The notes below the pieces were generated by a model, which was not told where the DNA came from, ran no database searches, and saw only the letters and a list, made by a program, of their open reading frames with translations. 53,880 nucleotides of DNA from a virus (lineage: Duplodnaviria > Heunggongvirae > Uroviricota > Caudoviricetes). How positions within the stretch are numbered: the stretch's first letter is position 1; every line of letters begins with the position of its first letter. Below are positions 2,892 through 38,137 of the stretch, in pieces. A program made the translations under genes and the position numbers. The stretch spans positions 1-53,880 of the IMG/VR virus record IMGVR_UViG_2617270943_000003; one strand, given 5' to 3'.

Positions 2892-3098
2892 TTACACAAT
2901 CCGCATTGTGTTTCGTAATTCACCGCGCAACGCCCGTAATGCATCGCGCATTGGCACAAAAACCCGGTTAAATTTTACGTGTTTATATTTCCGCATCAGT
3001 GGCGGTGTATACACCTTTGCGTCGTATACTTCCCACGGATAATAAACGCGCGTATCGTCGACAAACGTTTCAACTGAATAAAAGATTACCCGTCTCAT
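2892..3098 (-). CDS. Hypothetical protein
   Basis: 68 aa ORF, stop/start overlap with the upstream gene suggests an operon. Confidence 0.4.
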   Translation of the reverse strand: MRRVIFYSVETFVDDTRVYYPWEVYDAKVYTPPLMRKYKHVKFNRVFVPMRDALRALRGELRNTMRIV

Positions 3099-3652
3099 AA
3101 TTCTAACCCCGTTTCACCGTTAAGTTTTTCGATCTCAAATACTGGTTTATCCGGTAACAGGCCGTTATTTTTCCGGTATTCATTCAGGCGGCTGTCAAAA
3201 TCAAACGCGAGATCATTAGCGTGACCAAAGCGCCCAGGTTTAAACAGTGAGTAAAAGTTAAGGCCGTGTTTATTGGTGTCTATGCAAAGCGTTTCATCAA
3301 GTACCATTAAACGCAGCGTGCGCGACAGGTAATTCCACGGGATACCAGTTTCCGCGCTAATGTCACGCATACGCTTCTTAACGCTGTAGTCACTAAATAA
3401 CGCCGCCACACGATCACGACGTTGTGCATACAAATATTTAATTCGATACCCCAATAATCTGCGGCGCGGTCCGAAATATGTATATACACGCTCGACAATA
3501 CCAGTATCAATCAAGTGTTTAATTGTCTCAGGCAAACATCCGGCTTCGTCATATTCCGCTGATAATCCGGTTTTCTGGCGTAGCTGGTGCATTGTTGCGA
3601 TGCCGTCCAGTTCAAGGATATTGATAACTTTTGTTTCAAGTTCAATGCTCAT
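3095..3652 (-). CDS. Hypothetical protein (possible winged-helix domain)
   Basis: ORF 3095-3688; start placed at MSIELETK (3652), which has GAGG upstream. Confidence 0.45.
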   Translation of the reverse strand: MSIELETKVINILELDGIATMHQLRQKTGLSAEYDEAGCLPETIKHLIDTGIVERVYTYFGPRRRLLGYRIKYLYAQRRDRVAALFSDYSVKKRMRDISAETGIPWNYLSRTLRLMVLDETLCIDTNKHGLNFYSLFKPGRFGHANDLAFDFDSRLNEYRKNNGLLPDKPVFEIEKLNGETGLEL

Positions 3653-3731
3653 TGTTTTTCGCCTCGTTTTAAGCGCGAAAACAGCCACCAGAAAGAGATC
3701 AACTTTCCGGTAAGCCGTTTGCTCAAGTTAA

Positions 3732-5153
3732 TTAAAAGGATGCGTTATTCTGGTTATTTCGTGGGGAGAATCGGCTTGCTGCCGGACGTTGTTGCATTGA
3801 CTGGATGCAGGCGGACGCCGCGCGAGCCTGGTTGCATGGAATGATGTTGCCGTTATCGTCAAACCACTGGTAAACAGTCCCCGTTTTCCCGTGACGGTTT
3901 TTTGAAACGATGATCTCCATGTATTCGCGGGCAACCGATTGTTCGTTGTAGTAGCCGTCGCGGTAGACCATGATGATCCGGTCTGCGTCCTGTTCAAGAT
4001 TACCGGAATCACGCAGATCAGAATTGTTCGGGCGCTTGTTCGGTCGTTCCTCAACGCGGCGGGATAATTGCGCCAGCGCCGCCACTGGCACGCGCAACTC
4101 TTTCGCCATCATTTTCAATGACCACGACAATTGCCCTACGGCGAGATCATGACGTTCGGCCTTAGCCAGCTTCATTAACCCGATGTAGTCAATCATTACC
4201 ATCCCCAGGTTAGGATGGTCCTGTTTCATCCGTTCGACGGTGGCGCGTATTTCCTCGACCGTTAACTGCGATGCGTCAACAATCCACACATCGAGATCGG
4301 CAAGGGCACTCATTCCCTGGGCGACGTGCGCCCAACCTTCGTCATCCAGTTTTACCGGATTACGTAGGCAATCCGTTGATAAGTTCCCAGCGCCAGCGAT
4401 AGCACGTTCAGTCATCTGATCGAGCGACATTTCAAGCGTGAACAGCAAAACGCCGACCCGCTGACCTTCGCCGCCAGGGTATGGACGTTCAGCCGCCGCG
4501 CGGGCAATTGCCAACGCCAACGCCGATTTACCAGACCCCGGACGTCCGGCGATAAGCACCAGATCAGTAGCGTTAATGCCTCCTAACATTTCGTCGAGTG
4601 GGTCAATCCCTGTTTTGATGTTGTCAGAGTTCACGCCACACTCCATGCGTTTACTTAGCACTTCCGTGTACTCCTGTACCGCGTCGCGCAACAGCACCGG
4701 AATAATCTTGTCTTTCGTTACTTTTAATTTTGAATACCGGGAATCAAAATATTTCATCGTCTCCCTGACAGCTTCAAGTGTCCCGGTTTCCAGGTTGTAG
4801 CGTATATCGTCCATCAGTTCCAACATTTGCCGCCGCTGATATTCCTCCTGTAATAGAGCGGCGTACCCCTTAAGGTTGGCAGCAGATGGACACGATCGCG
4901 CCGTTTGCATTAGCGGGACAAAATTTTCGTTACCGATTTCATCACCGACCATCAGAGCGTCAATAAGGTTTCTGTTTCTTGCTTGCGCCCGGATGATCTC
5001 AAACGCTCGTTTATATAGTGGAATGGTGAAGACTTCAGGATCGAGCGTAGCAAGAACATCTTGCGCGTTAGGAGTAAGCCCGCCCAACAGGAGGCCACCT
5101 ATCACGGCCGCTTCCCGTTCCTGGCGTAATGAGTTTATTTGCTCAGTCACCAT
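3732..5153 (-). CDS. Replicative DNA helicase, DnaB family
   Basis: DnaB N-terminal domain (AAVIGGLLLGG...KRAFEI), Walker A GRPGSGKSALALAIA, Walker B VMIDYIGLM, and DnaB C-terminal motifs (SRRVEERPNKRPNNSDLRDSGNLEQDADRIIMVYRD). Confidence 0.9.
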   Translation of the reverse strand: MVTEQINSLRQEREAAVIGGLLLGGLTPNAQDVLATLDPEVFTIPLYKRAFEIIRAQARNRNLIDALMVGDEIGNENFVPLMQTARSCPSAANLKGYAALLQEEYQRRQMLELMDDIRYNLETGTLEAVRETMKYFDSRYSKLKVTKDKIIPVLLRDAVQEYTEVLSKRMECGVNSDNIKTGIDPLDEMLGGINATDLVLIAGRPGSGKSALALAIARAAAERPYPGGEGQRVGVLLFTLEMSLDQMTERAIAGAGNLSTDCLRNPVKLDDEGWAHVAQGMSALADLDVWIVDASQLTVEEIRATVERMKQDHPNLGMVMIDYIGLMKLAKAERHDLAVGQLSWSLKMMAKELRVPVAALAQLSRRVEERPNKRPNNSDLRDSGNLEQDADRIIMVYRDGYYNEQSVAREYMEIIVSKNRHGKTGTVYQWFDDNGNIIPCNQARAASACIQSMQQRPAASRFSPRNNQNNASF

Positions 5154-6686: not shown

Positions 6687-7739
6687 TCAAAGAACGCCAG
6701 CGCGCGTATCACGTAGCGTTTTTGGTTTAAGCAGAAAATCAAGTGTCGCAGTGAAGCCATTGCCGAAGTAAAAATCTGAAGCCGTGTTTTTGAACGTTTC
6801 GAAGTAGGCGACAAAGCCGTTAATGCTTTTGTCTTTCAGGTAGTCAGTGAACGCATAGATCTTGCGTTCAAGATCCCGATCCAGTTCGGCAGGTGGTAAC
6901 AGGCCGTCAAACGTGCTGTTAAATGCTTCCACCACGTCGGCAGCGTTTACAGTAGCTGATAGCTTGCGCCATTGTTCAGCATCAGCCAAATACCCATCAA
7001 ACTTAGTTACCCGGCAAATGTTGATAGGCTTAGGTGTTCCACCACGGCTACGCCATTGCGTTAAAGCCCACTCAATCACTAATGTGATCTCATCCTCCGT
7101 ATACGCTTTACGTGTTTTTGTTTCTGTCAGTAGTTCTACGAATGGCTTAGCATCACGACATTTGCATCCTGCCTTGTCGTTGTAGAAGGCAAGGCAACGC
7201 AATGCCGCTTCGTTTACGCCATCCTGATTGACCATTTTTTGTTCATTTTCGACAATACACGAAGTGTATATATCTTTTTCTCTTTCTTTTTCTACTTCTA
7301 ATTCTAATTCATGACCCTTTCCTGACCCGGTCATGACCCTATCATGACCTTTTTGTGTTGGATTGATTAACTTTTCTAATTTTAATTGCTCCTTCGCTGT
7401 GTTTATGGCGGCCCTGTAAGCGCTTTTAGAAGTCATTGATTGGTCCAGCCTTTTCAATAACTTTAAACAAGTTATGTGGCCTTGAGAACATTCAAACAAA
7501 CCAATTTCGATGAAGTATTTCATCATTTCTTCTATACGTTTTTCAGTAGATCCGACGTTTCGCGCAATTATTCTTGCGTCATGTCGTAGGTCAAAAGTTA
7601 GATTGTGCTGATCTACGTCATAAGTTATTAGTTCTAGGCAATACCAATAAAGCCCGTACCCTTCCAGGCCATAATCTAATAAAACGTTTTGAAGTTTTTC
7701 ATCGCGGTTCGCATCGCTATCATGCTTAAACCACTTCAT
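6687..7739 (-). CDS. Phage replication initiation / replisome organizer protein (DUF4373-like N-terminus)
   Basis: N-terminus MKWFKHDSDANRDEKL...YGLYWYCLEL is characteristic of phage replication organizer proteins; it sits upstream of the DnaB-like helicase in the same operon. Confidence 0.65.
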   Translation of the reverse strand: MKWFKHDSDANRDEKLQNVLLDYGLEGYGLYWYCLELITYDVDQHNLTFDLRHDARIIARNVGSTEKRIEEMMKYFIEIGLFECSQGHITCLKLLKRLDQSMTSKSAYRAAINTAKEQLKLEKLINPTQKGHDRVMTGSGKGHELELEVEKEREKDIYTSCIVENEQKMVNQDGVNEAALRCLAFYNDKAGCKCRDAKPFVELLTETKTRKAYTEDEITLVIEWALTQWRSRGGTPKPINICRVTKFDGYLADAEQWRKLSATVNAADVVEAFNSTFDGLLPPAELDRDLERKIYAFTDYLKDKSINGFVAYFETFKNTASDFYFGNGFTATLDFLLKPKTLRDTRAGVL

Positions 7740-15916: not shown

Positions 15917-16677
15917 GCGGGCTTAGAAATTGGGTGGTGTGGTCGCTGTATGACGGCAGCGGGTACGCTGTTAAAGATTGGGCGGACGCTGGTTATAAAT
16001 GTTATTGCTTCAACTATGACGGCGCTAATCACGGTGATTATGACGGGGTAAAAATAATTCATCCAAATATTGAATATGTTAACGTCTGGATTGATAGCCA
16101 TTTTCTGGTAATGTTCTCCCCTGAATTGTCTGTATATCCAGATCCTGACATTATCCTGGGCTTTCCTCCATGCGACAATCTCGCCGTTTCAGGCGCTCGC
16201 TGGTTCGCTGATAAACGGAAAAAAGACCCTGACTTCCAGGTGAAGGCGGCGCATAACGCAAAACTGGTAGAAAAACTGGCGAATATGCATAACGTGCCGT
16301 GGATGGTGGAAAATCCGGTGGGCGCACTGTCAACGTTATGGCGTAAACCGGATTTTATCTTCAATCCGTGCGCTTACGGTGGCTACCTGCCGGAAGATGA
16401 TAAGCATCCCGCTTTCCCGGAATACATTGCCGACCGCGACGCCTACACGAAGAAAACTTGTATTTGGTGCGGGAATGGATTTAAGCAGCCGCTATTCCGT
16501 CCTGTGCCGATGCCAGATGAATGGGAAGACAGTAAGCAGCACGCGAAGTTAGGCGGAAAATCAAAGCGAACAAAGATGATCCGCTCACTAACGCCGCGTG
16601 GCTTCGCCCGTGCTGTATTCCTGGCTAACGACCGGGCCATCAATCGTACTACGCTCAACCGCGTTTTGCCGGACTGA
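15913..16677 (+). CDS. Putative DNA cytosine-5 methyltransferase-like protein
   Basis: Motif IV-like GFPPCDNLAVSG (PC catalytic dipeptide), motif VI-like MVENPVG, motif I-like SLYDGSGYA; short at 254 aa. Confidence 0.5.
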   Translation: MSGLRNWVVWSLYDGSGYAVKDWADAGYKCYCFNYDGANHGDYDGVKIIHPNIEYVNVWIDSHFLVMFSPELSVYPDPDIILGFPPCDNLAVSGARWFADKRKKDPDFQVKAAHNAKLVEKLANMHNVPWMVENPVGALSTLWRKPDFIFNPCAYGGYLPEDDKHPAFPEYIADRDAYTKKTCIWCGNGFKQPLFRPVPMPDEWEDSKQHAKLGGKSKRTKMIRSLTPRGFARAVFLANDRAINRTTLNRVLPD

Positions 16678-16699
16678 AGTTTACAAAATGGCGTCATTG

Positions 16700-16715
16700 T
16701 GTGATGAATGTCACA
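16700..16715. promoter_or_regulatory. Consensus CRP-like palindrome TGTGA-N6-TCACA
   Basis: TGTGATGAATGTCACA read directly; lies between inverted copies of the TACAAAATGG element upstream of the Cys-rich ORF and ninG. Confidence 0.4.
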
Positions 16716-16836
16716 TAATGGCGCTTTGCACCTTGTTAGCACGTATCCATTTTGTATACTTCAAGCAAACAAAATGCTCTTTAAAAATCCGGCAGCGCTG
16801 AAATGCGTAGAAATCACCTGAAAAGGAGAGAGCATT

Positions 16837-17013
16837 ATGCCTTTTGATAATTACCAATGGCATGACGACTATGAACGAGAAAGCGTTATGCGTGCAATGT
16901 GCAATGTATGCAGCACGAAGAAAGGAGGCTGTAACGAGTGCAACGAATGCTTAGAACATTGGCTAAGGGCCGGACACGCCGAAAGGCTGAACGAAACAGA
17001 GAATCAAAAATAA
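16837..17013 (+). CDS. Small Cys-rich protein (58 aa)
   Basis: MPFDNYQWHDDYERESVMRAMCNVCSTKKGGCNECNECLEHWLRAGHAERL; AAGGAGAG Shine-Dalgarno-like sequence upstream. Confidence 0.35.
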   Translation: MPFDNYQWHDDYERESVMRAMCNVCSTKKGGCNECNECLEHWLRAGHAERLNETENQK

Positions 17014-17027
17014 TCGGGGTGGTTTTT

Positions 17028-17633
17028 ATGCAAAACCCTAAAAAACCCATAAGACGCCGTTGCAAATGCTGCGGCGTTTTTTTTGAGCCTAAATATCACA
17101 ATCAAACGTGGTGCAGCGATGAATGTCTGGAAGAACTGAAGTTTGACCAGCTATGCCGCGACCGTGAGAAGGCTATGAAGGCTATGGAGCGGAAGAAACG
17201 CCGTGATAGCCAGAGGGAAGAACGCAACCGGAAGCGTAAACAGTTAAATCCGCGTAGTTATTGGATCAAACAAGTTCAAAATGTATTTAACGCCTATATT
17301 CGCGAACGTGACGCGCGCTTGCCGTGTATATCTTGCGGGACTTACTACGGTGAGCAATGCGGGTGGGATGCAGGTCATTACAGGACGGTAGCCGCCGCCG
17401 GACATCTTCGCTTTAACGAGGATAATTGCCATAAACAATGCAGGCACTGCAACCAGACATTAGACGGGAACATAGGAGGGTATCGCCCGGCACTGATTCG
17501 AAAAATTGGCCTCGCCAGGGTGGTAGCGCTGGAAAACAACAATGATACGCATAAATGGACGATCGCAGAATGTAAGGAGCTAATAAACATCTATCAGGCT
17601 AAATTGGACGCCTTAAGGAGAAAGGCAGCATGA
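17028..17633 (+). CDS. ninG: NinG / Rap recombination protein
   Basis: MQNPKKPIRRRCKCCGVFFEPKYHNQTWCSDEC...PRSYWIKQVQNVFNAYIRERDARLPCISCGT...WDAGHYRT...LRFNEDNCHKQC is closely collinear with lambda NinG. Confidence 0.85.
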   Translation: MQNPKKPIRRRCKCCGVFFEPKYHNQTWCSDECLEELKFDQLCRDREKAMKAMERKKRRDSQREERNRKRKQLNPRSYWIKQVQNVFNAYIRERDARLPCISCGTYYGEQCGWDAGHYRTVAAAGHLRFNEDNCHKQCRHCNQTLDGNIGGYRPALIRKIGLARVVALENNNDTHKWTIAECKELINIYQAKLDALRRKAA

Positions 17634-18031
17634 ATGAATATTCTTTTAGCCTGCCTTACCCGCCATCGAATAATCGCTATTACCGACATTCGCGCGGTTT
17701 TCACTATATCAGCAAAGTGGGGAAGGAATACAGGGAACAAGTAAGAGACATCATCGAGCTATTAAATTTAAATATTAACCTACCTTGCCGACTGGCAATT
17801 GCCATTTACGCCGCGCCGCCGGATAACCGGATCAGAGATCTGGATAATATCCCTAAATGCCTTTTTGATAGCCTTACTTATGCCGGATTCTGGACTGACG
17901 ACGGACAAATCGACTCAATAAAAATTGTGCGCTGCCGGAAGGTAAAAGGCGGGCGATTGTTTATCAAGGTACGCGAACGCGGCGACCTGCTACCGGATAT
18001 TGACGAATACGCGACCAATATGTGGGGTTAG
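17630..18031 (+). CDS. rusA: RusA-family Holliday junction resolvase
   Basis: LPYPPSNNRYYRHSRG...DLDNIPKCLFDSLTYAGFWTDDGQI resembles RusA endonucleases. Confidence 0.8.
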   Translation: MNEYSFSLPYPPSNNRYYRHSRGFHYISKVGKEYREQVRDIIELLNLNINLPCRLAIAIYAAPPDNRIRDLDNIPKCLFDSLTYAGFWTDDGQIDSIKIVRCRKVKGGRLFIKVRERGDLLPDIDEYATNMWG

Positions 18032-18033
18032 CA

Positions 18034-18216
18034 ATGAAAAACGAAGTTAAAGATCTGCAAATAGATATTCAGCGCGACGAGCGTGATTTAGAGACGGTCC
18101 GACAAATCCAGGCTTTCCACATGCGCGAATTACTTGCGCTGAAAGAGTTTGAAAGAAAGCTGGTGCAATCCATTTCTGATCGTAAACGCCTTATTGCTCG
18201 TTACGGGGGCAAATAA
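18034..18216 (+). CDS. Hypothetical coiled-coil protein
   Basis: 60 aa ORF following rusA. Confidence 0.4.
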   Translation: MKNEVKDLQIDIQRDERDLETVRQIQAFHMRELLALKEFERKLVQSISDRKRLIARYGGK

Positions 18217-18944
18217 TGAATTTAGAATCCATTCTAAAATTCCACTTTCCTAAATCACCGCGATTATCTGACGAAAGCCGGGGCACGTCCCCGGACGCTC
18301 TTAATACAACGGATGCGCTAACCGCTGCGGGTATGGCGCAATCGCGCGTAGAGCTTGGATATAGCGCTTTTTTAGGGAAGATGGAACTATCACAAGCCGA
18401 AAAACACAGGGCCGTAGTTTTGCTTACAGAGCGTTTAAGAGCTATGGCGAAAGATTACGAATACGTGATGGAATTAAATGAAGAACAACGAAATGATCTT
18501 ATTATTCTTGTTGCCGTTTTCGCGTTTCGGGATTACTGCCAGAGTGCCGCGACCGAAAAGGTTTGCCCTAAGTGCGGCGGTAACGGGCTTTTACCAAATC
18601 CATATTGTGAATACACATCGACAGTTTGCTCGCGGTGCAACGGCAAAGGCTACGTTAAGAACCATTGCCAACGTTGCAAGGGGCGCGGCGAAGTACCGGA
18701 TAAAGCAGCCAGCGAAGCGGCGGAAATGCCAGTATTCAAAACGTGCCAGCATTGCGGCGGGCGCGGGTACTCGCGTTTCCCTGTAGATCTCGTCCGGCAG
18801 GCTGTTAACCAGCTTGTTTTCCCTGTAAGCAGATCAACATGGTGGAAGAAATACCGGGTTTTCTATGAAGACGCCATAGCGGAGCTATTCAAAGAAGAAG
18901 CCCGCGCGGAAAGCGAAATTAAACGAGTGACACGGGGTGAATAA
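18216..18944 (+). CDS. Q: Late-gene antitermination protein Q-like (zinc-finger CxxC repeats)
   Basis: Repeated CxxCxGxG motifs (CPKCGGNG, CSRCNGKG, CQRCKGRG, CQHCGGRG), located after ninG-rusA as in lambdoid phages. Confidence 0.65.
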   Translation: MNLESILKFHFPKSPRLSDESRGTSPDALNTTDALTAAGMAQSRVELGYSAFLGKMELSQAEKHRAVVLLTERLRAMAKDYEYVMELNEEQRNDLIILVAVFAFRDYCQSAATEKVCPKCGGNGLLPNPYCEYTSTVCSRCNGKGYVKNHCQRCKGRGEVPDKAASEAAEMPVFKTCQHCGGRGYSRFPVDLVRQAVNQLVFPVSRSTWWKKYRVFYEDAIAELFKEEARAESEIKRVTRGE

Positions 18945-19144
18945 TGGACAAGTTAGAAATAAACGATCAGTTTGCCGTTATCTTATTTGAAGATAAAACA
19001 GGCGGCGCATGGTGTAAGAAAGTCACTGGTGCGGAAGCGCGTTTAATATTGGGTATGGCGAGCGCGTTAAACGAGGGCGAATTGCCCGCCATCCCTGTTA
19101 AGCCAGTCAAAATATACAAACGGGGTGACGATGATGAAGCCTAA
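18944..19144 (+). CDS. Hypothetical protein
   Basis: 66 aa ORF. Confidence 0.4.
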   Translation: MDKLEINDQFAVILFEDKTGGAWCKKVTGAEARLILGMASALNEGELPAIPVKPVKIYKRGDDDEA

Positions 19145-19403
19145 ATTAAAAGAACATCTATTTGCAAAGCTGGTCAATAACCTGACATTAACGGCGCGTG
19201 TGTGCAGTGATACGCAACAATTAAGGGCGTGGATAGCAAGGGATTTAAGAAAATACATTGAGCCAGGCGGACCAGGCGACGAAATGACTATGGACAAGGC
19301 CATCAAGCGCCGTTCGGCTGAATGGTCAGTGAGTAACACTGGATTAACCGGATACATTGAAGGCTATAACGACTGTTTACAGGATCATAGCGATGGCAAG
19401 TAA
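19125..19403 (+). CDS. Hypothetical protein
   Basis: 92 aa ORF. Confidence 0.4.
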   Translation: MTMMKPKLKEHLFAKLVNNLTLTARVCSDTQQLRAWIARDLRKYIEPGGPGDEMTMDKAIKRRSAEWSVSNTGLTGYIEGYNDCLQDHSDGK

Positions 19404-19698
19404 AGACCTGCATTTGAATCTGAAAGGGGAATATTTCCACGCTATCCGTGCGGGAAAGAAGGTGGAGGAATACCGGCTTTATAATGATTATTGGCGTAAA
19501 CGCCTGGAAGGGCGGGAATATGAACGTTTGTTCATTAAATGGGGTTATCCAGCAGGACACGAAGAACACCGGATTATAGACCTACCTTATTTTGGCTATG
19601 AAGTGAAAACGATCATACATCCGTTGTTCGGCCCTGATCCTGTTAAGGTATTCGCAATTAAATGTGATGTGAATTGGATGCTAAGAGGTGAAAAATGA
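19393..19698 (+). CDS. Hypothetical protein
   Basis: ORF 19357-19698; start at MASKDLHLNL. Confidence 0.4.
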   Translation: MASKDLHLNLKGEYFHAIRAGKKVEEYRLYNDYWRKRLEGREYERLFIKWGYPAGHEEHRIIDLPYFGYEVKTIIHPLFGPDPVKVFAIKCDVNWMLRGEK

Positions 19699-19907
19699 AA
19701 AGTAACCGTAAGCGCCTTGTAAGGGCATACGACAAAGCATTAAAGGCTTTTGATGATCTGCGACGCAATAAGCGCCAGCGCCGCAAATGGGCGCGAATGC
19801 TTGTTAGTGAATGGCATAACGAAGATTTCTTTCTGGAAGCGCGGCACATGACGCAAGAAGACGCGGATCAATTAGCTTACGATAACGTTTACTATATGAT
19901 GTGGTGA
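19695..19907 (+). CDS. Hypothetical protein
   Basis: 70 aa basic ORF. Confidence 0.4.
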   Translation: MKSNRKRLVRAYDKALKAFDDLRRNKRQRRKWARMLVSEWHNEDFFLEARHMTQEDADQLAYDNVYYMMW

Positions 19908-19911
19908 TAAT

Positions 19912-20277
19912 ATGCAAATAATCATTGATTACCTTTGCCACGCTGCAAATACAATTTTCGGTATGTATCAACAACCGTTTCTCAAAGAATGGGATGATAT
20001 GCTAAACGACATCCTCGACAAAGGATTAATAATGGAGGTTGACGAGCTTACAATCAGATTTAATTATGAAGGTGAAGAATATCTAATTTGGGTGGGTAAT
20101 AGATGGTATTCATACGGTCATATTTATTCAATTGGTGGTAAGTTCATTAAAAGAAACCAGGAATTCAGACCGCGCTTCCGCACAATGCGCCGCCTGCATG
20201 ATCTGCATATGAAGTTATTCGAAGATCAGGAAGCACGGGAATTATTCAAAATTTACGGGGATAAATCATGGAGCTAA
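19912..20277 (+). CDS. Hypothetical protein
   Basis: 121 aa ORF. Confidence 0.45.
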   Translation: MQIIIDYLCHAANTIFGMYQQPFLKEWDDMLNDILDKGLIMEVDELTIRFNYEGEEYLIWVGNRWYSYGHIYSIGGKFIKRNQEFRPRFRTMRRLHDLHMKLFEDQEARELFKIYGDKSWS

Positions 20278-20498
20278 AAATCTGGCAGGCTATCGACGTA
20301 GTTGATAATGAATTATCTATGTTTGCCACTGACGGAAAGCGCGTGGCGATCGCTACATGGACGCGCTTGCATGACGATATCACTTTTCGCCGCAAAGTTG
20401 CCGAGGGTCTTTTCTCTGATGGCGGCTACACGATGAATATCGCACAGCTTGCCAGGATGAAGGATGAAAAGCTGGTAGACAGCTACACAACTGCATAA
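20268..20498 (+). CDS. Hypothetical protein
   Basis: 76 aa ORF. Confidence 0.4.
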   Translation: MELKIWQAIDVVDNELSMFATDGKRVAIATWTRLHDDITFRRKVAEGLFSDGGYTMNIAQLARMKDEKLVDSYTTA

Positions 20499-20508
20499 CG
20501 GGGTAAAT

Positions 20509-21033
20509 ATGCGTATTTATGAACACAAGCGGGATAAAACCCGCTTTTTTGTTCGTGCTGGCGTAGCGTACCAGTATCACGAATGCGGATATATTGAGGC
20601 GCTTGCTTACGACCTGGATTTCGAACAAGAAAAGGCATGGTTCGATTTTAAAATTTACCGTAAGCGCAAACCAACGCGCGACGAGCGCCACGCTATCCGG
20701 GACTTTTTAATCAGCATTGACCGCTGGGGGTACAGAGTAATGAGAGCGAAGAAAATGGCAGACAAGAAAGCGTTAGTTATTGCCACAACGGATGTATCGT
20801 TATTTACGAAGGGCGAAGAAATAGATCTTAAATTGCTTTTTGGTATGTTTGAGCCACACGAAAAGCCGTGGTTTGTTCATGAAGACAAACAAGGAAATAT
20901 GCGCGTTGTAGTGCCGGACAAAAACAGCGACATATTTTTTGCTATTCCAGACCCATTACATGACGGTGAAATGCTGGCGGTATTGTTGGTCACTGATGCT
21001 GTCACTTACAAGGGAAAGAAATATGAAAGTTAA
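20509..21033 (+). CDS. Hypothetical protein
   Basis: 174 aa ORF. Confidence 0.5.
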   Translation: MRIYEHKRDKTRFFVRAGVAYQYHECGYIEALAYDLDFEQEKAWFDFKIYRKRKPTRDERHAIRDFLISIDRWGYRVMRAKKMADKKALVIATTDVSLFTKGEEIDLKLLFGMFEPHEKPWFVHEDKQGNMRVVVPDKNSDIFFAIPDPLHDGEMLAVLLVTDAVTYKGKKYES

Positions 21034-21250
21034 ATTCTTGCACGATCACGGCTACCCGTCATTGAAACAGGTTGTTGGTAAGGTCGTTAATGTCGTTCAT
21101 AGCGATGATGTTACTTGCATGATTAACGGTGCTGATCTCATTGCCGCTGGTGCTGATGACCATTACATCAATCCTGCGTGGTCGTATACGTTCAGCCTGG
21201 GCGACTTCGTGGGCGACAAGGGGCGCGGGCTGCAAGTGGTAGAGGGTTAA
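21023..21250 (+). CDS. Hypothetical protein
   Basis: ORF 20939-21250; start at MKVKFLHDHGY (21023). Confidence 0.4.
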   Translation: MKVKFLHDHGYPSLKQVVGKVVNVVHSDDVTCMINGADLIAAGADDHYINPAWSYTFSLGDFVGDKGRGLQVVEG

Positions 21251-21254
21251 TATC

Positions 21255-21470
21255 ATGGACGTTTACGAAGATCTATACCTTCAGACAAATACCCGCACTT
21301 TTTATTTTCTGAAAAACGGCGTCGTATATCGCAGCGATGACGGGGTAATAATGAAGGAATGGTTATTTAAGCGCAAAGACCTACTGGAAGATCTTGTCTT
21401 CGCCGGGATATTCCGTAAACGTCCGGCTAACATTGAGGAAGAAATGTTGATCGACGAGGTATTAAAATGA
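21255..21470 (+). CDS. Hypothetical protein
   Basis: 71 aa ORF. Confidence 0.4.
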   Translation: MDVYEDLYLQTNTRTFYFLKNGVVYRSDDGVIMKEWLFKRKDLLEDLVFAGIFRKRPANIEEEMLIDEVLK

Positions 21471-21718
21471 AAGTGAAAGTGAACTATTTCAGAGCAAAAG
21501 ACAAGGCAACAGGGAAACGGGTAGTTATCCTGGTTAATGAGGCCAATTATATGTTTGTTCTCCAGCCGTGGTGCATAACTGACTATAACGATGATTATCG
21601 CCGTCATGCAGCGCGGCGGGCGGTCGGCATGAAAGGCTGGCAACCGCGCGACATGGAAAATTATTGCGACTGGAAACTGATAGCAAAATACACGGTCGAT
21701 TATAAAGGTATCTTCTGA
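21467..21718 (+). CDS. Hypothetical protein
   Basis: 83 aa ORF. Confidence 0.4.
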   Translation: MKVKVNYFRAKDKATGKRVVILVNEANYMFVLQPWCITDYNDDYRRHAARRAVGMKGWQPRDMENYCDWKLIAKYTVDYKGIF

Positions 21719-21734
21719 TTTAAGGTGATTGCCT

Positions 21735-22559
21735 ATGAAACATCAAGTAATATCGTTCAGTGGCGGAAGGACTTCTGCTTACATGACTCTAGAGGTATTG
21801 AAAATTCACCATGACGCAGAGGTCATCTTTATGGATACAGGGGCTGAACACCCCAAAACATACGAGTTTATAAAGAATTTAGCCTCACACTTCAACATTA
21901 AAATAACTTGCCTCCGCTGCGTTCCTCCTGCAATTAAATACGGTAAATTCAGTTACGAGATCATTGGTATTGATGATGTAAAATATGACCTTGTTCCGTG
22001 GCGGAGAATCCTGGAACATTATGGTCATCCTTATATCGGCGGGGCATTCTGTACTCACAGGATGAAACAGCTACCTTTTGAAAAGTATTGTGATGAACAC
22101 TATGGCAAAGGCAATTACGAACGCTGGTTAGGTATTAGGGCAGATGAGCCACGCAGACTACACGAAAGGGAGGGTTTTCACTATCTGGCAGATATAAGTG
22201 ACTTTGAGAAGCAGGATATTATTGATTGGTGGTCAGGGCAGCCATTTGATTTAGAGATCCCCGAACATCTTGGTAATTGTGTTTTCTGCATTAAGAAGAG
22301 CAACAAGAAGTTGGCATTGGCAGCAAGAGATGAACCTGAACTATATGACCAGTTTTGTAGTTGCATTGCAGAGCATGATTGCAAGGAAGGTAAGCCGGAA
22401 ATGTATCGCAACAAAATGGCATTGCAGGACGTAATAGCGTTGTTCAGACTGGAGGAAACAGAAGGGATACGCAGCAGCATTATTAACAAGAAAGAGTTTG
22501 GTTCAGGCAGTTGTTCTGAAAGCTGCGAGGCTTTCGCTTGTGATAATAACGTGATCTAA
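21735..22559 (+). CDS. PAPS-reductase-like PP-loop ATP pyrophosphatase family protein
   Basis: PP-loop motif ISFSGGRTSAY near the N-terminus and a C-terminal Cys cluster (CSESCEAFAC); ATG at 21735 with AAGGTGA upstream. Confidence 0.6.
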   Translation: MKHQVISFSGGRTSAYMTLEVLKIHHDAEVIFMDTGAEHPKTYEFIKNLASHFNIKITCLRCVPPAIKYGKFSYEIIGIDDVKYDLVPWRRILEHYGHPYIGGAFCTHRMKQLPFEKYCDEHYGKGNYERWLGIRADEPRRLHEREGFHYLADISDFEKQDIIDWWSGQPFDLEIPEHLGNCVFCIKKSNKKLALAARDEPELYDQFCSCIAEHDCKEGKPEMYRNKMALQDVIALFRLEETEGIRSSIINKKEFGSGSCSESCEAFACDNNVI

Positions 22560-22644
22560 ATCACAAAGTATACAAAATGGCATTGTTCAGGCAGTGCCGT
22601 TTTGTTATATGTAAGCCACGGAAAGACGGAGGGGAGGCAAGAAA

Positions 22645-22785
22645 ATGAACGCTAACGCTAAATATCCGGCATGGGTTTTTGAGTTATATGCCCGCTACTT
22701 TGAATTGCTGGCACCAGGTGAAGAAGCATTAAGCATTGACGAATACGCGGAGTGTTTGGGGTTCAAAGGAGGCAAAGAAGGATAA
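22645..22785 (+). CDS. Small hypothetical protein (46 aa)
   Basis: MNANAKYPAWVFELYARYFELLAPGEEALSIDEYAECLGFKGGKEG; strong GGAGGGGAGG Shine-Dalgarno-like sequence upstream. Confidence 0.35.
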   Translation: MNANAKYPAWVFELYARYFELLAPGEEALSIDEYAECLGFKGGKEG

Positions 22786-22828
22786 AGCACGGGGTCGGAT
22801 GGCTCCATCAAACCAGAAGGGTTGAATC

Positions 22829-23128
22829 ATGAAAAGCGATAAATTCATAGCGTGCTGTTTTGTTGAAGTGCCTAAAGGTGATGTTTTCTGTAATTACGAA
22901 TTTAAAGACAGTTTAGGCCGATCTCATGTTGTTGTTGGTAAACGAGGCGATTGGTTATATATAACAGACGACGACATGATTTTTACCAAAAATCAACTAT
23001 TTTACATCAACTCAGTAAATAATTATGCGCCAGTTGCCGCTATATCCATGATGGATCTTAAATCTAATATGTGGCTTGAAAAGGACACTGTGCATAAAGC
23101 GCGTAGCTTACCTGGTGCGGAGTTTTAA
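22829..23128 (+). CDS. Hypothetical protein
   Basis: 99 aa ORF. Confidence 0.45.
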   Translation: MKSDKFIACCFVEVPKGDVFCNYEFKDSLGRSHVVVGKRGDWLYITDDDMIFTKNQLFYINSVNNYAPVAAISMMDLKSNMWLEKDTVHKARSLPGAEF

Positions 23129-23130
23129 TT

Positions 23131-23388
23131 ATGGTTGTGTTCAGGCTATGGCGCGGTGTAAGTCGTACCGATGGCACGTATAGCCGCGTGATTGAAGATG
23201 TTAACCGTGGCCGTTTTTATGAACTGGCATACAGGGAGGGAATGGAGAATACATATTTTGATGAGTCAATCCCTATGTGGCGGAAAATAGCTGGTGAAAT
23301 AGCTTTCGTTGCTCGCTACGGTACTTATAAAGATCACAACACGCTAACGGATGCCGAACTGGTGGCAATTCTTTACGAAGGAGAATAA
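23131..23388 (+). CDS. Hypothetical protein
   Basis: 85 aa ORF. Confidence 0.4.
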   Translation: MVVFRLWRGVSRTDGTYSRVIEDVNRGRFYELAYREGMENTYFDESIPMWRKIAGEIAFVARYGTYKDHNTLTDAELVAILYEGE

Positions 23389-23391
23389 CAA

Positions 23392-23715
23392 ATGTCTAAA
23401 TTTATCAGCGTTAAGGTTTTTCGTGGCAATTTTCCAGAAGATAAAGAAATTGGACAATTCGCAGGTGAACGTGGCGTATGTTTCCGTGTAGCTACTGAAG
23501 ACGATGCGCACGTTAAATGCTTTCACGTATCTGAACCGCCTTTTAATGCAGACCATCTTGAAGACCTGAATAGAATTAAAAGCCTTATTTTTGCCTATCT
23601 GGCGTTCCCTGGCATAGCTAATGCTGATGTGGGATTGGTTGGAGCTGAACTAGTGGCAGAATATAAAATGACTGAAGGAGAAGAAGGGGGAATTAAAATT
23701 GAGCGCATCAAATAA
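23392..23715 (+). CDS. Hypothetical protein
   Basis: 107 aa ORF. Confidence 0.45.
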   Translation: MSKFISVKVFRGNFPEDKEIGQFAGERGVCFRVATEDDAHVKCFHVSEPPFNADHLEDLNRIKSLIFAYLAFPGIANADVGLVGAELVAEYKMTEGEEGGIKIERIK

Positions 23716-23953
23716 GGTATACAAAATCAGGTGTAAAGGCGAATACCCTGGCTTTACGATTGGTTGCGAATATATGGGCCGCATTGGGTACGGCCCTTTC
23801 GGTGAATTAGGGATGAATACGCTGGACGACGACGGCGACAGCAGGACGCTTGATCTCGATTCTGATGATTTCGAATACATCCCGCCAGTAACTTGCCGCG
23901 TAGTTGATGAGTTCCTGGCTGAACATGAAGACGATGAGGATGATTATGATTGA
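23699..23953 (+). CDS. Hypothetical acidic protein
   Basis: 84 aa ORF with non-ATG (TTG) start and AAGGGGGA upstream; acidic C-terminus. Confidence 0.35.
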   Translation: MSASNKVYKIRCKGEYPGFTIGCEYMGRIGYGPFGELGMNTLDDDGDSRTLDLDSDDFEYIPPVTCRVVDEFLAEHEDDEDDYD

Positions 23954-24140
23954 ATGCCTTATTGCTGTGACTGTTTTGCTTTATATCGCTGGCGCGATCT
24001 TGATGTCATGTTTTATTAAGGTTAGTGAGGCTGACCGTTGCGGATTTGAGATCCCTTTTTGGCCTGTATTGGTTTTTCTCGCTTTCTTTGATGTTACGGT
24101 AGTGCAGATCAAGCGAGCCATTAAGGAGCGCAAGAAATGA
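23940..24140 (+). CDS. Small membrane protein
   Basis: MIMIECLIAVTVLLYIAGAILMSCFIKV...FWPVLVFLAFFDV: two hydrophobic helices. Confidence 0.4.
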   Translation: MIMIECLIAVTVLLYIAGAILMSCFIKVSEADRCGFEIPFWPVLVFLAFFDVTVVQIKRAIKERKK

Positions 24141-24319
24141 TTGAAGATGGGGTGTACGCAGCAACAGTAGTCGACAGGTTGTTTTACCGCGTGGAAGGTG
24201 ATGATATTCGTATCCGTGTTGGCGGTGGCGGGTGGGTAGCGCCAATCATTAAGACGACGCGAGAAACAATTAAAATATTTCTTGATGCTGGTGAACTGGT
24301 AAAGGTTAGCGACCTATGA
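24137..24319 (+). CDS. Hypothetical protein
   Basis: 60 aa ORF. Confidence 0.35.
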   Translation: MIEDGVYAATVVDRLFYRVEGDDIRIRVGGGGWVAPIIKTTRETIKIFLDAGELVKVSDL

Positions 24320-24492
24320 ACGAGATCGAAGACGGTATGTATTTTCATAAGGTATTTGACATCGCCTATTTGGTAAGAGGCGAAGAGGTGATGATAAGGA
24401 ATGAAGATGTTCCTTATTGGGAATTAAGCGACATGGATCGCGAACACATGCAAACATTGCTTGATAACGGACTGATATACAGAACTGCGTAA
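24316..24492 (+). CDS. Small hypothetical protein (58 aa)
   Basis: MNEIEDGMYFHKVFDIAYLVRGEEVMIRNEDVPYWELSDMDREHMQTLLDNGLIYRTA by manual translation; stop/start overlap with the upstream gene. Confidence 0.3.
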   Translation: MNEIEDGMYFHKVFDIAYLVRGEEVMIRNEDVPYWELSDMDREHMQTLLDNGLIYRTA

Positions 24493-24500
24493 AGCCGTAT

Positions 24501-24529
24501 TTGTGGGTCGAAAACAAGCAGATTAAAAT
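24501..24529 (+). promoter_or_regulatory. Candidate late promoter (TTGTGG-17bp-TAAAAT) upstream of lysis cassette
   Basis: -35/-10-like hexamers with 17-bp spacing, immediately upstream of a strong hairpin terminator, resembling a PR'/tR' arrangement. Confidence 0.35.
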
Positions 24530-24557
24530 ATTACCTAACAATGCGAAACTGTAACTA

Positions 24558-24580
24558 CCCGGCCCCGCGCCGGGTTTTTG
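24558..24580 (+). terminator. Rho-independent terminator upstream of holin (tR'-like)
   Basis: GC-rich hairpin CCCGGC-CCCGC-GCCGGG followed by TTTTT. Confidence 0.6.
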
Positions 24581-24599
24581 CTTTGTTGGAGGAAAATCT

Positions 24600-24800
24600 A
24601 TGTTCGACAGAATACGGGAGGCGTGTGCGTATGTGACTGGGGCCGTAACTGCTTTTTTCGGCGCGATAACCATCAATGACATTGCCGTCTTTGTGGGTAT
24701 CTTATCAACCGTAGGCACATTTGCCGTTAATTATTACTTCAAATCACAGGAGAACAAGCGAGCGCAAGAGGAACACGACGCGCGAATGGGGAATAAGTAA
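24600..24800 (+). CDS. Holin (pinholin-like, two TM domains)
   Basis: 66 aa, two hydrophobic segments and charged C-terminal tail, immediately upstream of a SAR lysozyme. Confidence 0.7.
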   Translation: MFDRIREACAYVTGAVTAFFGAITINDIAVFVGILSTVGTFAVNYYFKSQENKRAQEEHDARMGNK

Positions 24801-25292
24801 ATGATTAGCCAATCGCTGAAAAACAAGATTGTTGCGGCGGCGGCTGGTGGGGCGATCGCTATTGCGGCGGTGATGATTAAGCCATTAGAGGGCGTGGAAC
24901 ACGATCCCTATCGTGATGTTGTAGGTGTATGGACTGTTTGCTACGGTCACACCGGGAAAGACATCATGCTTGGTAAGACTTACACGCAATCAGAATGCGA
25001 TGCTTTGTTAAATAAAGATCTACACAAGACCGCAAAAGCGATTGACCCATATATCAAAGTCGAAATATCAGATTTTACCCGCGCTGCACTTTATTCCTTC
25101 GCCTATAACGTAGGCGCAACCAACTTCAAAACATCAACCTTATTAAAGCTACTCAATGACGGCAGGAAATCGGAAGCGTGCGCACAGCTTAAACGCTGGG
25201 TATACGCTGGCGGTAAGAAGTGGCAAGGCCTGGTAAACCGCCGCGATGTTGAATATGCCGTTTGCGAATGGGGGGAAACGTGGACAAGGTGA
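24801..25292 (+). CDS. Endolysin, phage lysozyme (GH24) with N-terminal signal-anchor-release domain
   Basis: N-terminal weakly hydrophobic Gly/Ala-rich segment [18 protein letters not shown] followed by the lysozyme catalytic region (E...D...T: [23 protein letters not shown]). Confidence 0.85.
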
Positions 25293-25750
25293 AGGCGTTA
25301 ATTATCGCCGCTGTTGTTTGCATTATTGCCGGACTTACCGCCGTAACGTGTTATTACCAGGGGGAAACGGCAAGGTTACAGGAAGAAGTCACGGTGACGA
25401 AAGGCGCACTGAAAACGGCAAGTAACACTATTCAGCAGATGAAGGAGCGAAACGCCGAACTGTCAAAACTTGATAAGAGGTATCACGATGAGATTAAAGC
25501 TATCAGATCTGACATTGCCGATCTGCGCACTGGCATTGATAACGGCACTATCAGGCTGCGCGTCAACGCAATACCCGTGCGAGTGTCCGACTCCGCCGAA
25601 TCCGCCAGCCGCATTGATGGAGCCTCCTGTAGACTCACTCCCGACGCTGAATCGGCTTATCTATCCCTCAGAGAACAACTAAAAGAGAAAGATGCGAAGA
25701 TAACCGCGCTTCAGGGCTACATCAAAACACAGTGCTTACGCAAAGAATAA
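25262..25750 (+). CDS. Rz: Spanin, inner membrane subunit (Rz-like)
   Basis: N-terminal TM helix then coiled-coil periplasmic domain; overlaps lysozyme 3' end; contains embedded Rz1. Confidence 0.7.
25488..25682 (+). CDS. Rz1: Spanin, outer membrane lipoprotein subunit (Rz1-like), embedded in Rz
   Basis: Lipobox ITALSGC and Pro-rich mature region ([17 protein letters not shown]), entirely within Rz in another frame. Confidence 0.7.
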   Translation: MRLKLSDLTLPICALALITALSGCASTQYPCECPTPPNPPAALMEPPVDSLPTLNRLIYPSENN

Positions 25751-26087
25751 CAGCGCGTGGACGTGTCGCCGTTTCCGCCAGCCAGCCATAACCGGGCCAA
25801 TCCTTCCCGCGAGCGACGGCGGAAATTCAAAAACACGTAATACCGGATCAACAGTCCCATTAACAGGTCAGGCGCTACCTGGGTAGAAGAAAGCGCCATC
25901 AACTCACCTGCCATGCGTAGGATGAGCGTTCGGATCTGTTTACCAGAGATGTTAAGCAGATCCAGTTTTATAAAATTCTAAAAACGGTACTCACTCAGCG
26001 CCGTTTTTAGTGTTTTATAGCTGTTTTCACTCCCTGCGGTGTCCAGTTTTGCGGGGGTTATATTTTTCAGGATAGAGGAATATTCTG

Positions 26088-36188: not shown

Positions 36189-36571
36189 AACGCAGCGAAG
36201 TATACGACGAAATAAGGGATTGGATTAAATCCCACGGGTACGATGAAGGCTATATTTTGCAGGCCCGTTTCTGGAATGAGCGATCCAATTCAAATAACGA
36301 CAGATACATTGTCATCCAGCAAAACGGCGGCGCGGCTGGTGAGGAAGCAATAACCCGTGATTATTTCCGCATCCTGGTTATTTCCGCGCGTAATGATGCA
36401 AATATCAGTGAAGTTGAAGACCTTGCCGACGCCATCCGCCAAAGTATGTTAACAGAATATAAAACTGATAAAATTACACACATGAAGCCAGTTGGCGCTA
36501 TTCCTGCAATGCAAACCAGAGAAGGGCGCTTTATTTTTACCGTAGCTTTTCAAACTATCATATCCAGATAA
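36185..36571 (+). CDS. Putative tail terminator-like protein
   Basis: 128 aa ORF preceding the putative major tail protein. Confidence 0.4.
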   Translation: MKRSEVYDEIRDWIKSHGYDEGYILQARFWNERSNSNNDRYIVIQQNGGAAGEEAITRDYFRILVISARNDANISEVEDLADAIRQSMLTEYKTDKITHMKPVGAIPAMQTREGRFIFTVAFQTIISR

Positions 36572-37816: not shown

Positions 37817-38137
37817 TTATGCTATTTTTTCGTAAAGCACATTCATCTGTGTGCGAATTACTGTTAATATATTGATTGCTGCGTTCTTATTAATGCGTTT
37901 ATTCGCTACTATTTTTGTTTTCCCATCAATAACAACCAGATCTGCGTGCAATACATGGTTGAAGTTGACAATGTAATAATACTGTTTATCGCCAACATGT
38001 TGAACATATGCACCATTTAGATTTCCTTTATACCCACAATCACGCTCTGCGACACCGAAGTCAAATTCGCGGTTCATCTTGCGATTATATGCTACTTGTT
38101 TATGTTCCCATTTTCTCATCCATTCATCGCGTTTCAT
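37817..38137 (-). CDS. Hypothetical protein (accessory cassette A, gene 2)
   Basis: 106 aa opposite-strand ORF inserted between tail chaperone and tape measure genes. Confidence 0.5.
   Translation of the reverse strand: MKRDEWMRKWEHKQVAYNRKMNREFDFGVAERDCGYKGNLNGAYVQHVGDKQYYYIVNFNHVLHADLVVIDGKTKIVANKRINKNAAINILTVIRTQMNVLYEKIA

Follow-up and report, generated by a model that had tools for sequence, protein, structure and literature searches.

A candidate lambda-type late switch ahead of the holin gene of mEpimmI coliphages, kilobases away from the Q gene

The late switch of phage lambda is a textbook unit, in which the gene for the antiterminator Q has the PR'-qut-tR' cassette right next to it. 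The cassette comes about 45 nt after the Q stop codon and has the promoter TTGACT-17-TAAATT, that is, a -35 hexamer, a spacer of 17 nt and a -10 hexamer. After a short gap (tgactc) this is followed by AACGAT. That hexamer occupies +1 to +6 and serves as the sigma-dependent pause element where Q loads. The intrinsic terminator lies some 190 nt downstream, and the lysis genes come after it. This paper concerns positions 24501-24579 of a viral DNA sequence of 53,880 nucleotides (IMG/VR record IMGVR_UViG_2617270943_000003, in full here called the window), which lie just ahead of a holin gene. The favoured reading, and a reasonably probable one, is that this stretch is a lambda-type PR'-qut-tR' late switch that has become displaced from the Q gene, with the phage's own Q acting on it in trans.

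Q loading is generally described as taking place at a sigma-dependent pause close to the promoter, and in lambda the Q-binding element (QBE) sits between the -35 and the -10 (PMC9388147). The published definition of a Q cassette assumes that the transcription unit is adjacent to Q (PMC9388147). Phages 21 and 82 also have a sigma-dependent pause close to the promoter, a QBE and a terminator (PMC9388147), but their Q proteins are from the unrelated families PF06530 and PF06323. In phage P22, where the elements are annotated as Plate, qut and tlate, the promoter and the pause are nearly identical to those of lambda, and the cassette adjoins gene 23. The P22 leader is compact: the annotated start is at position 37887 of its record and the terminator at 37917-37945, which means +31 to +59. 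The lysis genes are next, and the distance from the terminator to the holin is 300 nt, where it is 20 nt in the window.

The window belongs to the mEpimmI group of temperate coliphages. A megablast search with positions 17500-26000 matched seven phage records, all of them mEpimmI: MagusPhagus, mEp010, mEp554, mEp044, mEp013, mEp021 and mEp515. The first four of these cover 81-83% of the region at 86-90% identity, and mEp021 covers 57%. The window, mEp021 and mEp010 all have their genes in the order NinG, RusA, Q, small genes, holin. In a Mexican human-faecal (mEp) phage collection, mEpimmI phages reportedly occur about as often as lambdoid ones. In its 2025 description, the group is called Nus-dependent and non-lambdoid, with a CI-like repressor, an N-like protein Gp17 that acts at nutL, nutR1 and nutR2, and a Q-like protein (PMC11893012). 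The main text of that description does not place a late promoter (PMC11893012). The annotation of the terminator and the Q homologue were known before. The pause element, the assignment as a cassette and the uncoupled gene order are not described in the literature available on the group.

The site itself is on the + strand. It opens with a putative -35, TTGTGG at 24501-24506, which matches TTGACA at only three of six positions (lambda has TTGACT). A spacer of 17 nt (24507-24523) leads to the -10 hexamer TAAAAT at 24524-24529, a 5/6 match to the consensus. This pair was part of an original prediction made from the sequence alone, and it is there to be read as claimed. The 3' part of the spacer, AAAACAAnnAGAT at 24511-24523, is conserved, and is a candidate Q-binding element. 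The spacer is unrelated in sequence to that of lambda, in the position where lambda has its QBE.

Seven nt 3' of TAAAAT, after a gap that reads attacct, is CTAACAATGCG / CCTAACAATGCG, which contains the -10-like hexamer AACAAT (24537-24542). The block as a whole, CCTAACAATGCGAAA, spans 24534-24548. CTAACAATGCG fits the pause element CTAACGATGGG and its variants, as found 5-8 nt after the -10 in the cassettes of the Q-lambda family that were examined, and the block likewise fits the pattern CTAAC[GA]NT[GA], seen at the same 5-8 nt in other cassettes of this family. At the level of sequence, CTAACAATGCG after TAAAAT is a putative sigma-dependent pause element, whose position and core agree with those in lambda, P22, SE1Spa, the Stx2k phage and 101 further loci. 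The original prediction did not have this element; it was added by the present analysis.

Next comes an intrinsic terminator at 24557-24579 (+). It has a G+C-rich stem of 7 bp, a loop of 5 nt and a T5 run: the hairpin ACCCGGC-CCCGC-GCCGGGT occupies 24557-24575, and the T run 24575-24579. With seven pairs, six of them G-C, it is the top terminator-like site in 16000-28000, so that the strong GC hairpin of the original prediction holds up. The folding energy of the stem-loop is -13.3 kcal/mol. Two relatives carry it as an annotated terminator too: TERM_5 (score 100) of mEp021 and T9 of mEp010. The group's description gives the mEp021 terminators t1, t2 and t5 as experimentally demonstrated (PMC11893012). 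Going by the GenBank numbering TERM_1 to TERM_6, 't5' is likely this terminator. A Shine-Dalgarno sequence GGAGG at 24588-24592 then stands ahead of the holin ATG at 24600. The holin start had been predicted at this position, and the product (24600-24800, +) is indeed a class II holin (PF16080 E=2e-14, phrog_20), the first gene of the lysis cassette.

By analogy with lambda, transcription is predicted to start at 24536/24537, with a pause near 24551-24553. An RNA begun at 24537 would be some 43-46 nt long, whereas tR' of lambda ends a leader of 194 nt. The compact leader of P22 means that such a short leader is possible. The pause would fall some 4-6 nt before the first base of the stem, so that Q might load before the hairpin forms.

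IMG/VR, phage records and prophages of E. coli together supplied about 50 mEpimmI sequences. The 110 nt upstream of the holin ATG were aligned together with the holin gene, which resulted in 39 distinct rows. Within the holin gene, third codon positions are variable in 35 of 67 cases (52%), and first and second positions in 16 of 134. Of the six columns of TAAAAT none is variable, and the same goes for all 13 columns of TAACAATGCGAAA. The spacer 24511-24523 varies in 4 of its 13 columns, and the T run with the bases that follow it in 1 of 14. Each arm of the terminator stem is variable in at most one of seven columns, and the loop in four of five. Constant stems with a variable loop are what selection for a hairpin predicts. 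Judging from this alignment, purifying selection on the -10, the pause block and the stems is evident in mEpimmI, and on the same grounds of conservation the terminator is more than a chance occurrence. The module also keeps its place beside the holin while the gene that precedes it differs among relatives.

Two open reading frames (ORFs) cross the site, 24541-24636 (+) and 24314-24718 (-). Both were rejected as coding; they have no Shine-Dalgarno sequence, and a constant stem with a variable loop speaks for RNA structure. Rfam 15 has no family here at its gathering score, the best being RF01772 with 24.5 bits versus the 55 needed (E=0.47). Neither boxA nor boxB is present within 24493-24600; one has to go back to 16775-16810 for the nearest nut-like site.

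To function, a Q protein requires a qut site. The Q gene of the window lies at 18216-18944 (+) and encodes a protein of 242 aa. The protein matches PF03589 with 109.5 bits (cut-off 26.7, E=9e-32) and phrog_127 with E=2e-79. Its best solved relative is Q-lambda itself (PDB 7UBM, E=7e-37), and the alignment runs from residue 1 through to the C-terminus. Identity with lambda Q is 33% over the full length; with the longer Q proteins found in SE1Spa-type phages it rises to as much as 39%. In the alignment, the N-terminal segment, the four cysteines of the zinc ribbon and the C-terminal VT are all invariant. In Q-lambda this torus-forming N-terminal segment refolds into the 'nozzle' at the RNA exit (PMC9388147). 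A profile search found no match of the window protein to PF06530 or PF06323, the families of Q21 and Q82. What the original prediction had called Q-like is therefore a genuine, full-length protein of the Q-lambda family, and not of the Q82 or Q21 type.

Where the DNA-contacting zinc-ribbon arm begins, the window Q has a CxxC-rich insertion of around 35 aa that lambda Q does not have. This CxxC...CxxC insertion is encoded by 18558-18662 (+; Q residues 115-149), is DnaJ-like (CXXCXGXG) and matches PF00684 at 33 bits. It is a shorter version of the insertion in the long Q proteins of SE1Spa-type and Stx2k-type phages. With such an insertion in the arm, a Q-binding sequence unlike that of lambda is to be expected.

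Between the Q stop (18944) and the holin ATG there are 5,655 nt, with 19 ORFs on the + strand. The original prediction had put the distance at 5.5 kb, which is slightly short, and the number of small genes at about 25, which is too many. This small-gene block (18944-24492, +) varies in content and length among relatives. Its first ATG overlaps the Q stop, and directly after Q the window has no intergenic space, no promoter and no terminator. Among 45 mEpimmI loci, the Q stop and the holin ATG are between 2.0 kb (in mEp021) and 6.8 kb apart. Where relatives were aligned, there are only two conserved + strand intergenic regions between Q and terS.

So the transcription unit is not adjacent to Q in the window. 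It is followed by late genes on the same strand: the holin, an endolysin and an Rz-like spanin, and then terS at 27618 and the structural genes. The separation of Q and cassette is real, unusual, and specific to the mEpimmI clade. The best explanation is that in this clade a hypervariable block of small genes has displaced the cassette by 2-7 kb from Q. Action over such a distance poses no mechanistic problem, given that Q can diffuse and recognises its site on DNA. Intermediate Q relatives, which might date the displacement, were looked for in GTDB genomes, where nothing exceeded 39% identity.

Elsewhere, adjacency is the rule. The comparison was made with 68 viral and 80 bacterial loci outside mEpimmI that encode Q-lambda-family proteins, of which 141 were usable. 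The pattern set for an automated search was a -10, a gap of 5-8 nt, AA[CT][GA]NT and a terminator within 90 nt. In 101 of the 141 loci it found the module at most 78 nt from the Q stop, with a -10-to-pause gap of 5-8 nt. The module could be seen by eye in 23 of 35 loci missed by this search; the other 12 are short or lambda-like loci, in which the terminator is probably beyond the 90-nt limit. In all inspected loci outside mEpimmI the cassette begins no more than around 110 nt from Q. The original prediction had stated that Q is normally adjacent, and this is the case in the roughly 140 other loci of the family that were examined.

The commonest pause cores in these loci are CTAACGATGGG, CTAACAGTAG, CTAACACTA and CCAATGATGG. 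A gap of 7 nt as in the window occurs in 14 of the 101 cassettes. The closest Q proteins outside the group, at 34-41% identity, come from the long Q-lambda cassettes: those of Salmonella phage SE1Spa, phiSTEC1575-Stx2k and the enterobacterial prophages at loci L085-L152 and L201-L280. These proteins have the CxxC insertion in common with the window Q. SE1Spa has TTGCAA-17-TATCAT with the gap and pause aaccct-AACAGT, and phiSTEC1575-Stx2k has TTGCAT-17-TAAGAT with tttccc-AACGAT, both followed by a terminator. Pause elements in this set are CTAACGATGGG, CTAACAGTAG or CTAACACTA, against CTAACAATGCG in the window, and the terminators follow 19-89 nt on. Unlike in the window, the module is no more than about 110 nt from the Q stop in all of them that were inspected, and 70 of 84 have a -35 that matches at 4/6 or better. 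The order of elements in the window is the one known from lambda: a (putative) -35, 17 nt, a -10, some 6-7 nt, an AAC..T hexamer, an intrinsic terminator and then the lysis genes. Read from the sequences, the likeness of the window site to other cassettes is confined to this layout and to the pause element.

If the site is such a displaced switch, it would be expected to work as follows. Host RNA polymerase with sigma-70 would start at about 24536/24537, from TAAAAT and the weak -35. Region 2 of sigma would then rebind to AACAAT at +1 to +6, with a pause some 10 nt further on. Without Q, the hairpin with its T run would terminate transcription, and an RNA of around 45 nt would be set free. With Q, the protein made from 18216-18944, whose family membership is clear, would bind DNA in the conserved spacer and load onto the paused complex. 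The Q-loaded complex would pass the terminator at 24557-24579, and also the next one at around 25980-26010. Read-through would in this way reach the holin, the endolysin and the spanin, followed by the packaging and structural genes. The small-gene block would fall within the N-dependent delayed-early transcript, and the terminator would additionally shield the lethal lysis genes from transcription arising in that block.

Several results weigh against this reading. The -35 region is variable in 14 of 18 columns, and there are two unrelated upstream variants, GCCGTATTTGT[GA]G and CCATAATCGCGCAT, which are identical from 24511 onward. One third of the relatives have an unrelated -35 region (TCGCGC or ATCGCG, 2/6), and in a relative with this variant no promoter-like site was called. 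The consensus promoter scan of the window did not list the TTGTGG/TAAAAT pair either, because TTGTGG matches TTGACA at just 3/6. Among 84 distinct related cassettes, where the modal values are 4/6 for the -35 and 3-4/6 for the -10, the window promoter scores 3+5 of 12. Its -35 is below that of the 70 cassettes with at least 4/6, while its -10 is above that of 74. The sum of 8/12 (variant B: 7/12) is ordinary for the class.

The statistics of the motif are also modest. On its own, the -10-plus-pause motif occurs 14 times per strand where about 10 are expected, which is not significant. The composite of a -10, a gap of 6-7 nt, AACNNT and a terminator within 60 nt is found once in the window, at this site, and arose in 6 of 300 Markov shuffles. 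The Markov null yields too few terminators, so the true chance level is higher and the window alone gives modest support. A weight matrix built from 43 distinct cassettes of Q relatives ranks the site 77th, with a score of -4.7. Its top match in the window, at 36392, is within the range of shuffles. Since every Q has its own spacer sequence, such a whole-promoter matrix was rejected for detection. Furthermore, Q alleles and intergenic haplotypes show no co-variation and recombine freely. The gap between pause element and terminator, at 14 nt, is below that of all 101 comparison cassettes (19-89 nt). Finally, in a predicted fold of 24536-24600 the T run and UUGUUG are the partners of UAACAA and GCGAAA, so that the invariance of the flanks could reflect RNA structure. 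The proposed likeness to PR'/tR' has therefore fared unevenly: the -10, the pause element, the terminator, the Q family and the P22 leader speak for it, but the -35 is poor and not conserved, and an alternative based on the N-like system stands.

In that alternative, which is the main rival though less probable, 24557-24579 is a plain intrinsic terminator without a functional promoter. The original prediction had a version of it as its second option, with the terminator ending the early operon and the late genes relying on read-through. The site would end or insulate the rightward early transcript, and in lytic growth be passed by Gp17-modified polymerase coming from nutR2. Q would then act elsewhere or contribute little, and TAAAAT and AACAAT would be there by chance or be conserved for another reason. 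The group's description reports Gp17 together with three nut sites, of which nutR2 is placed after the cytosine methyltransferase gene and upstream of NinG, RusA and Q (PMC11893012). In the window, a boxA-like TGCTCTTTAA at 16775-16810 (+) is joined by a hairpin whose loop is rich in A, GCGCTGAAATGCGT. The two probably make up the nutR2 of the group, and the likely entry of Gp17-antiterminated transcription into the NinG-RusA-Q region. A promoter-like TTGTTA-16-TATACT (16733-16760, +) is directly ahead of it, so the third nut site may have its own promoter. From the nutR2 region to the structural genes + strand genes overwhelmingly prevail, and one antiterminated transcript could reach the holin. 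The annotation of the site as a terminator in relatives, the weak and unconserved -35 and the lack of significance of promoter plus pause fit this as well. What it leaves without a target is a conserved full-length Q-lambda protein, as nothing cassette-like follows Q. It also gives no reason for the invariance of TAAAAT and CTAACAATGCGAAA at a lambda-like spacing, while their neighbours and the silent sites of the holin vary. Lambda N acts through an RNA site, unlike Q, and like Gp17 of mEp021 it makes polymerase termination-resistant, here rightward through the same terminator (PMC11893012).

In lambda, N-dependent read-through and a Q cassette coexist, and read-through by Gp17 therefore does not exclude a cassette; by analogy with lambda, it probably occurs here as well. 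The fold mentioned above leads to another possibility, an unlikely one, which is that the conserved block is part of a 5' untranslated region (5'-UTR) structure in the lysis mRNA. Positions 24536-24548 would pair with 24576-24588, with a role in mRNA stability or holin translation. The helix, long and interrupted, reaches -22.1 kcal/mol with z = -2.7, and both partners are invariant. That same invariance leaves no covariation to judge by, and the z-score is a modest one, with an equally good fold in 3 of 200 shuffles. Pairing of an A-rich upstream sequence with the U tract of a terminator is common and nonspecific, and this weakens the case further. The structure would also leave the invariant TAAAAT upstream of the helix unexplained, and it is compatible with a displaced cassette rather than exclusive of it. 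There is also the highly improbable proposal that no dedicated late promoter is needed, and that Q loads on polymerase from far upstream, for example from the promoter before nutR2, which has sigma-70 retained or rebound and would pause at the conserved -10-like elements of the site. That the -35 was dispensable in evolution, that both upstream variants are alike from 24511 onward, and that two invariant -10-like hexamers lie 7 nt apart would suit it. Loading at any place other than a promoter-proximal pause is not known for a Q protein, however (PMC9388147), and a 5/6 -10 with a weak -35 is within the range of related PR' promoters. A wider version, similarly very unlikely, joins this to the gene order: throughout a clade of gut coliphages the Q gene would be parted from the site where Q loads, and the members lacking any -35 would use no dedicated late promoter, with Q loading independently of a promoter on sigma-containing polymerase that comes from far upstream and pauses at the conserved -10-like elements.

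Other positions for the cassette were considered. The AACGAT that comes shortly after Q (18962-18967) lacks both a -10 at 5-8 nt and a terminator in its vicinity, and was judged a chance occurrence. The site at 22641 (GAAAAT-7-AACGCT) is in a variable intergenic region with no strong terminator, and the one at 25971 (TAAAAT-6-AACGGT) overlaps the stem of a second terminator; both are minor alternatives only. When the same module was sought beside a Q gene elsewhere, by BLAST of 24493-24600 with phages and by exact pattern with viral contigs, the matches were almost only known mEpimmI contigs, plus a few new contigs whose context was not checked. More distant holin loci (L050-L066) turned out to be other phage types, and were uninformative. 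One of these, the unrelated viral contig L054 (IMGVR_UViG_2772190835_000002), has a Q-lambda-family protein at 3049-3831 (38% identity) and an HP1-family holin at 7115, 3.3 kb downstream.

The small-gene block contains some features of its own. Halfway through it, a strong terminator-like hairpin AAGCGGGATAAAACCCGCTT with a T run (20527-20546, +) follows the ORF 20268-20498 and falls inside the listed start of the ORF 20509-21033. Among the small genes between Q and holin is also a PAPS-reductase-like gene (21729-22559, +; PF01507, phrog_33262), with a weak hairpin and T run after it at around 22581-22607.

Downstream of the holin are the endolysin (24801-25292, +; PF00959 E=3e-45) and the Rz-like spanin (25262-25750, +; PF03245 E=1e-23). 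A second conserved terminator, on the + strand at 25969-26010, consists of an A tract, a hairpin and a T tract, and corresponds to TERM_6 of mEp021. It is preceded by the conserved TATAAAAT / TTTTATAAAATTC, and may be active in either direction. Only as a termination-resistant complex would polymerase get past it to terS and the structural genes. Positions 25751-25895 are strongly conserved in 40 distinct relatives though there is no + strand ORF; a minus-strand ORF of 65 aa is at 25717-25914. Between the ORF 26088-26672 and terS, a tandem of about 11 mini-ORFs of 22-32 aa (26675-27607, +) each encode one hydrophobic helix, with what appears to be a separate ribosome-binding site for most of them.

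The late-gene switch of mEpimmI is not located in the main text of the group's description (PMC11893012), and the site in the window is a precise candidate for it. If the reading given here is true, the leader of about 45 nt would be the shortest of its class found in the comparison. Annotation pipelines that look for qut only beside Q would miss such cases. The cargo genes that separate Q from the holin would count as part of the N-dependent delayed-early transcript, and a single terminator would double as the Q switch and as the shield of the lysis genes. It would also mean that the textbook unit of Q and its adjacent PR'-qut-tR' can be split, by several kb of fast-changing cargo genes.

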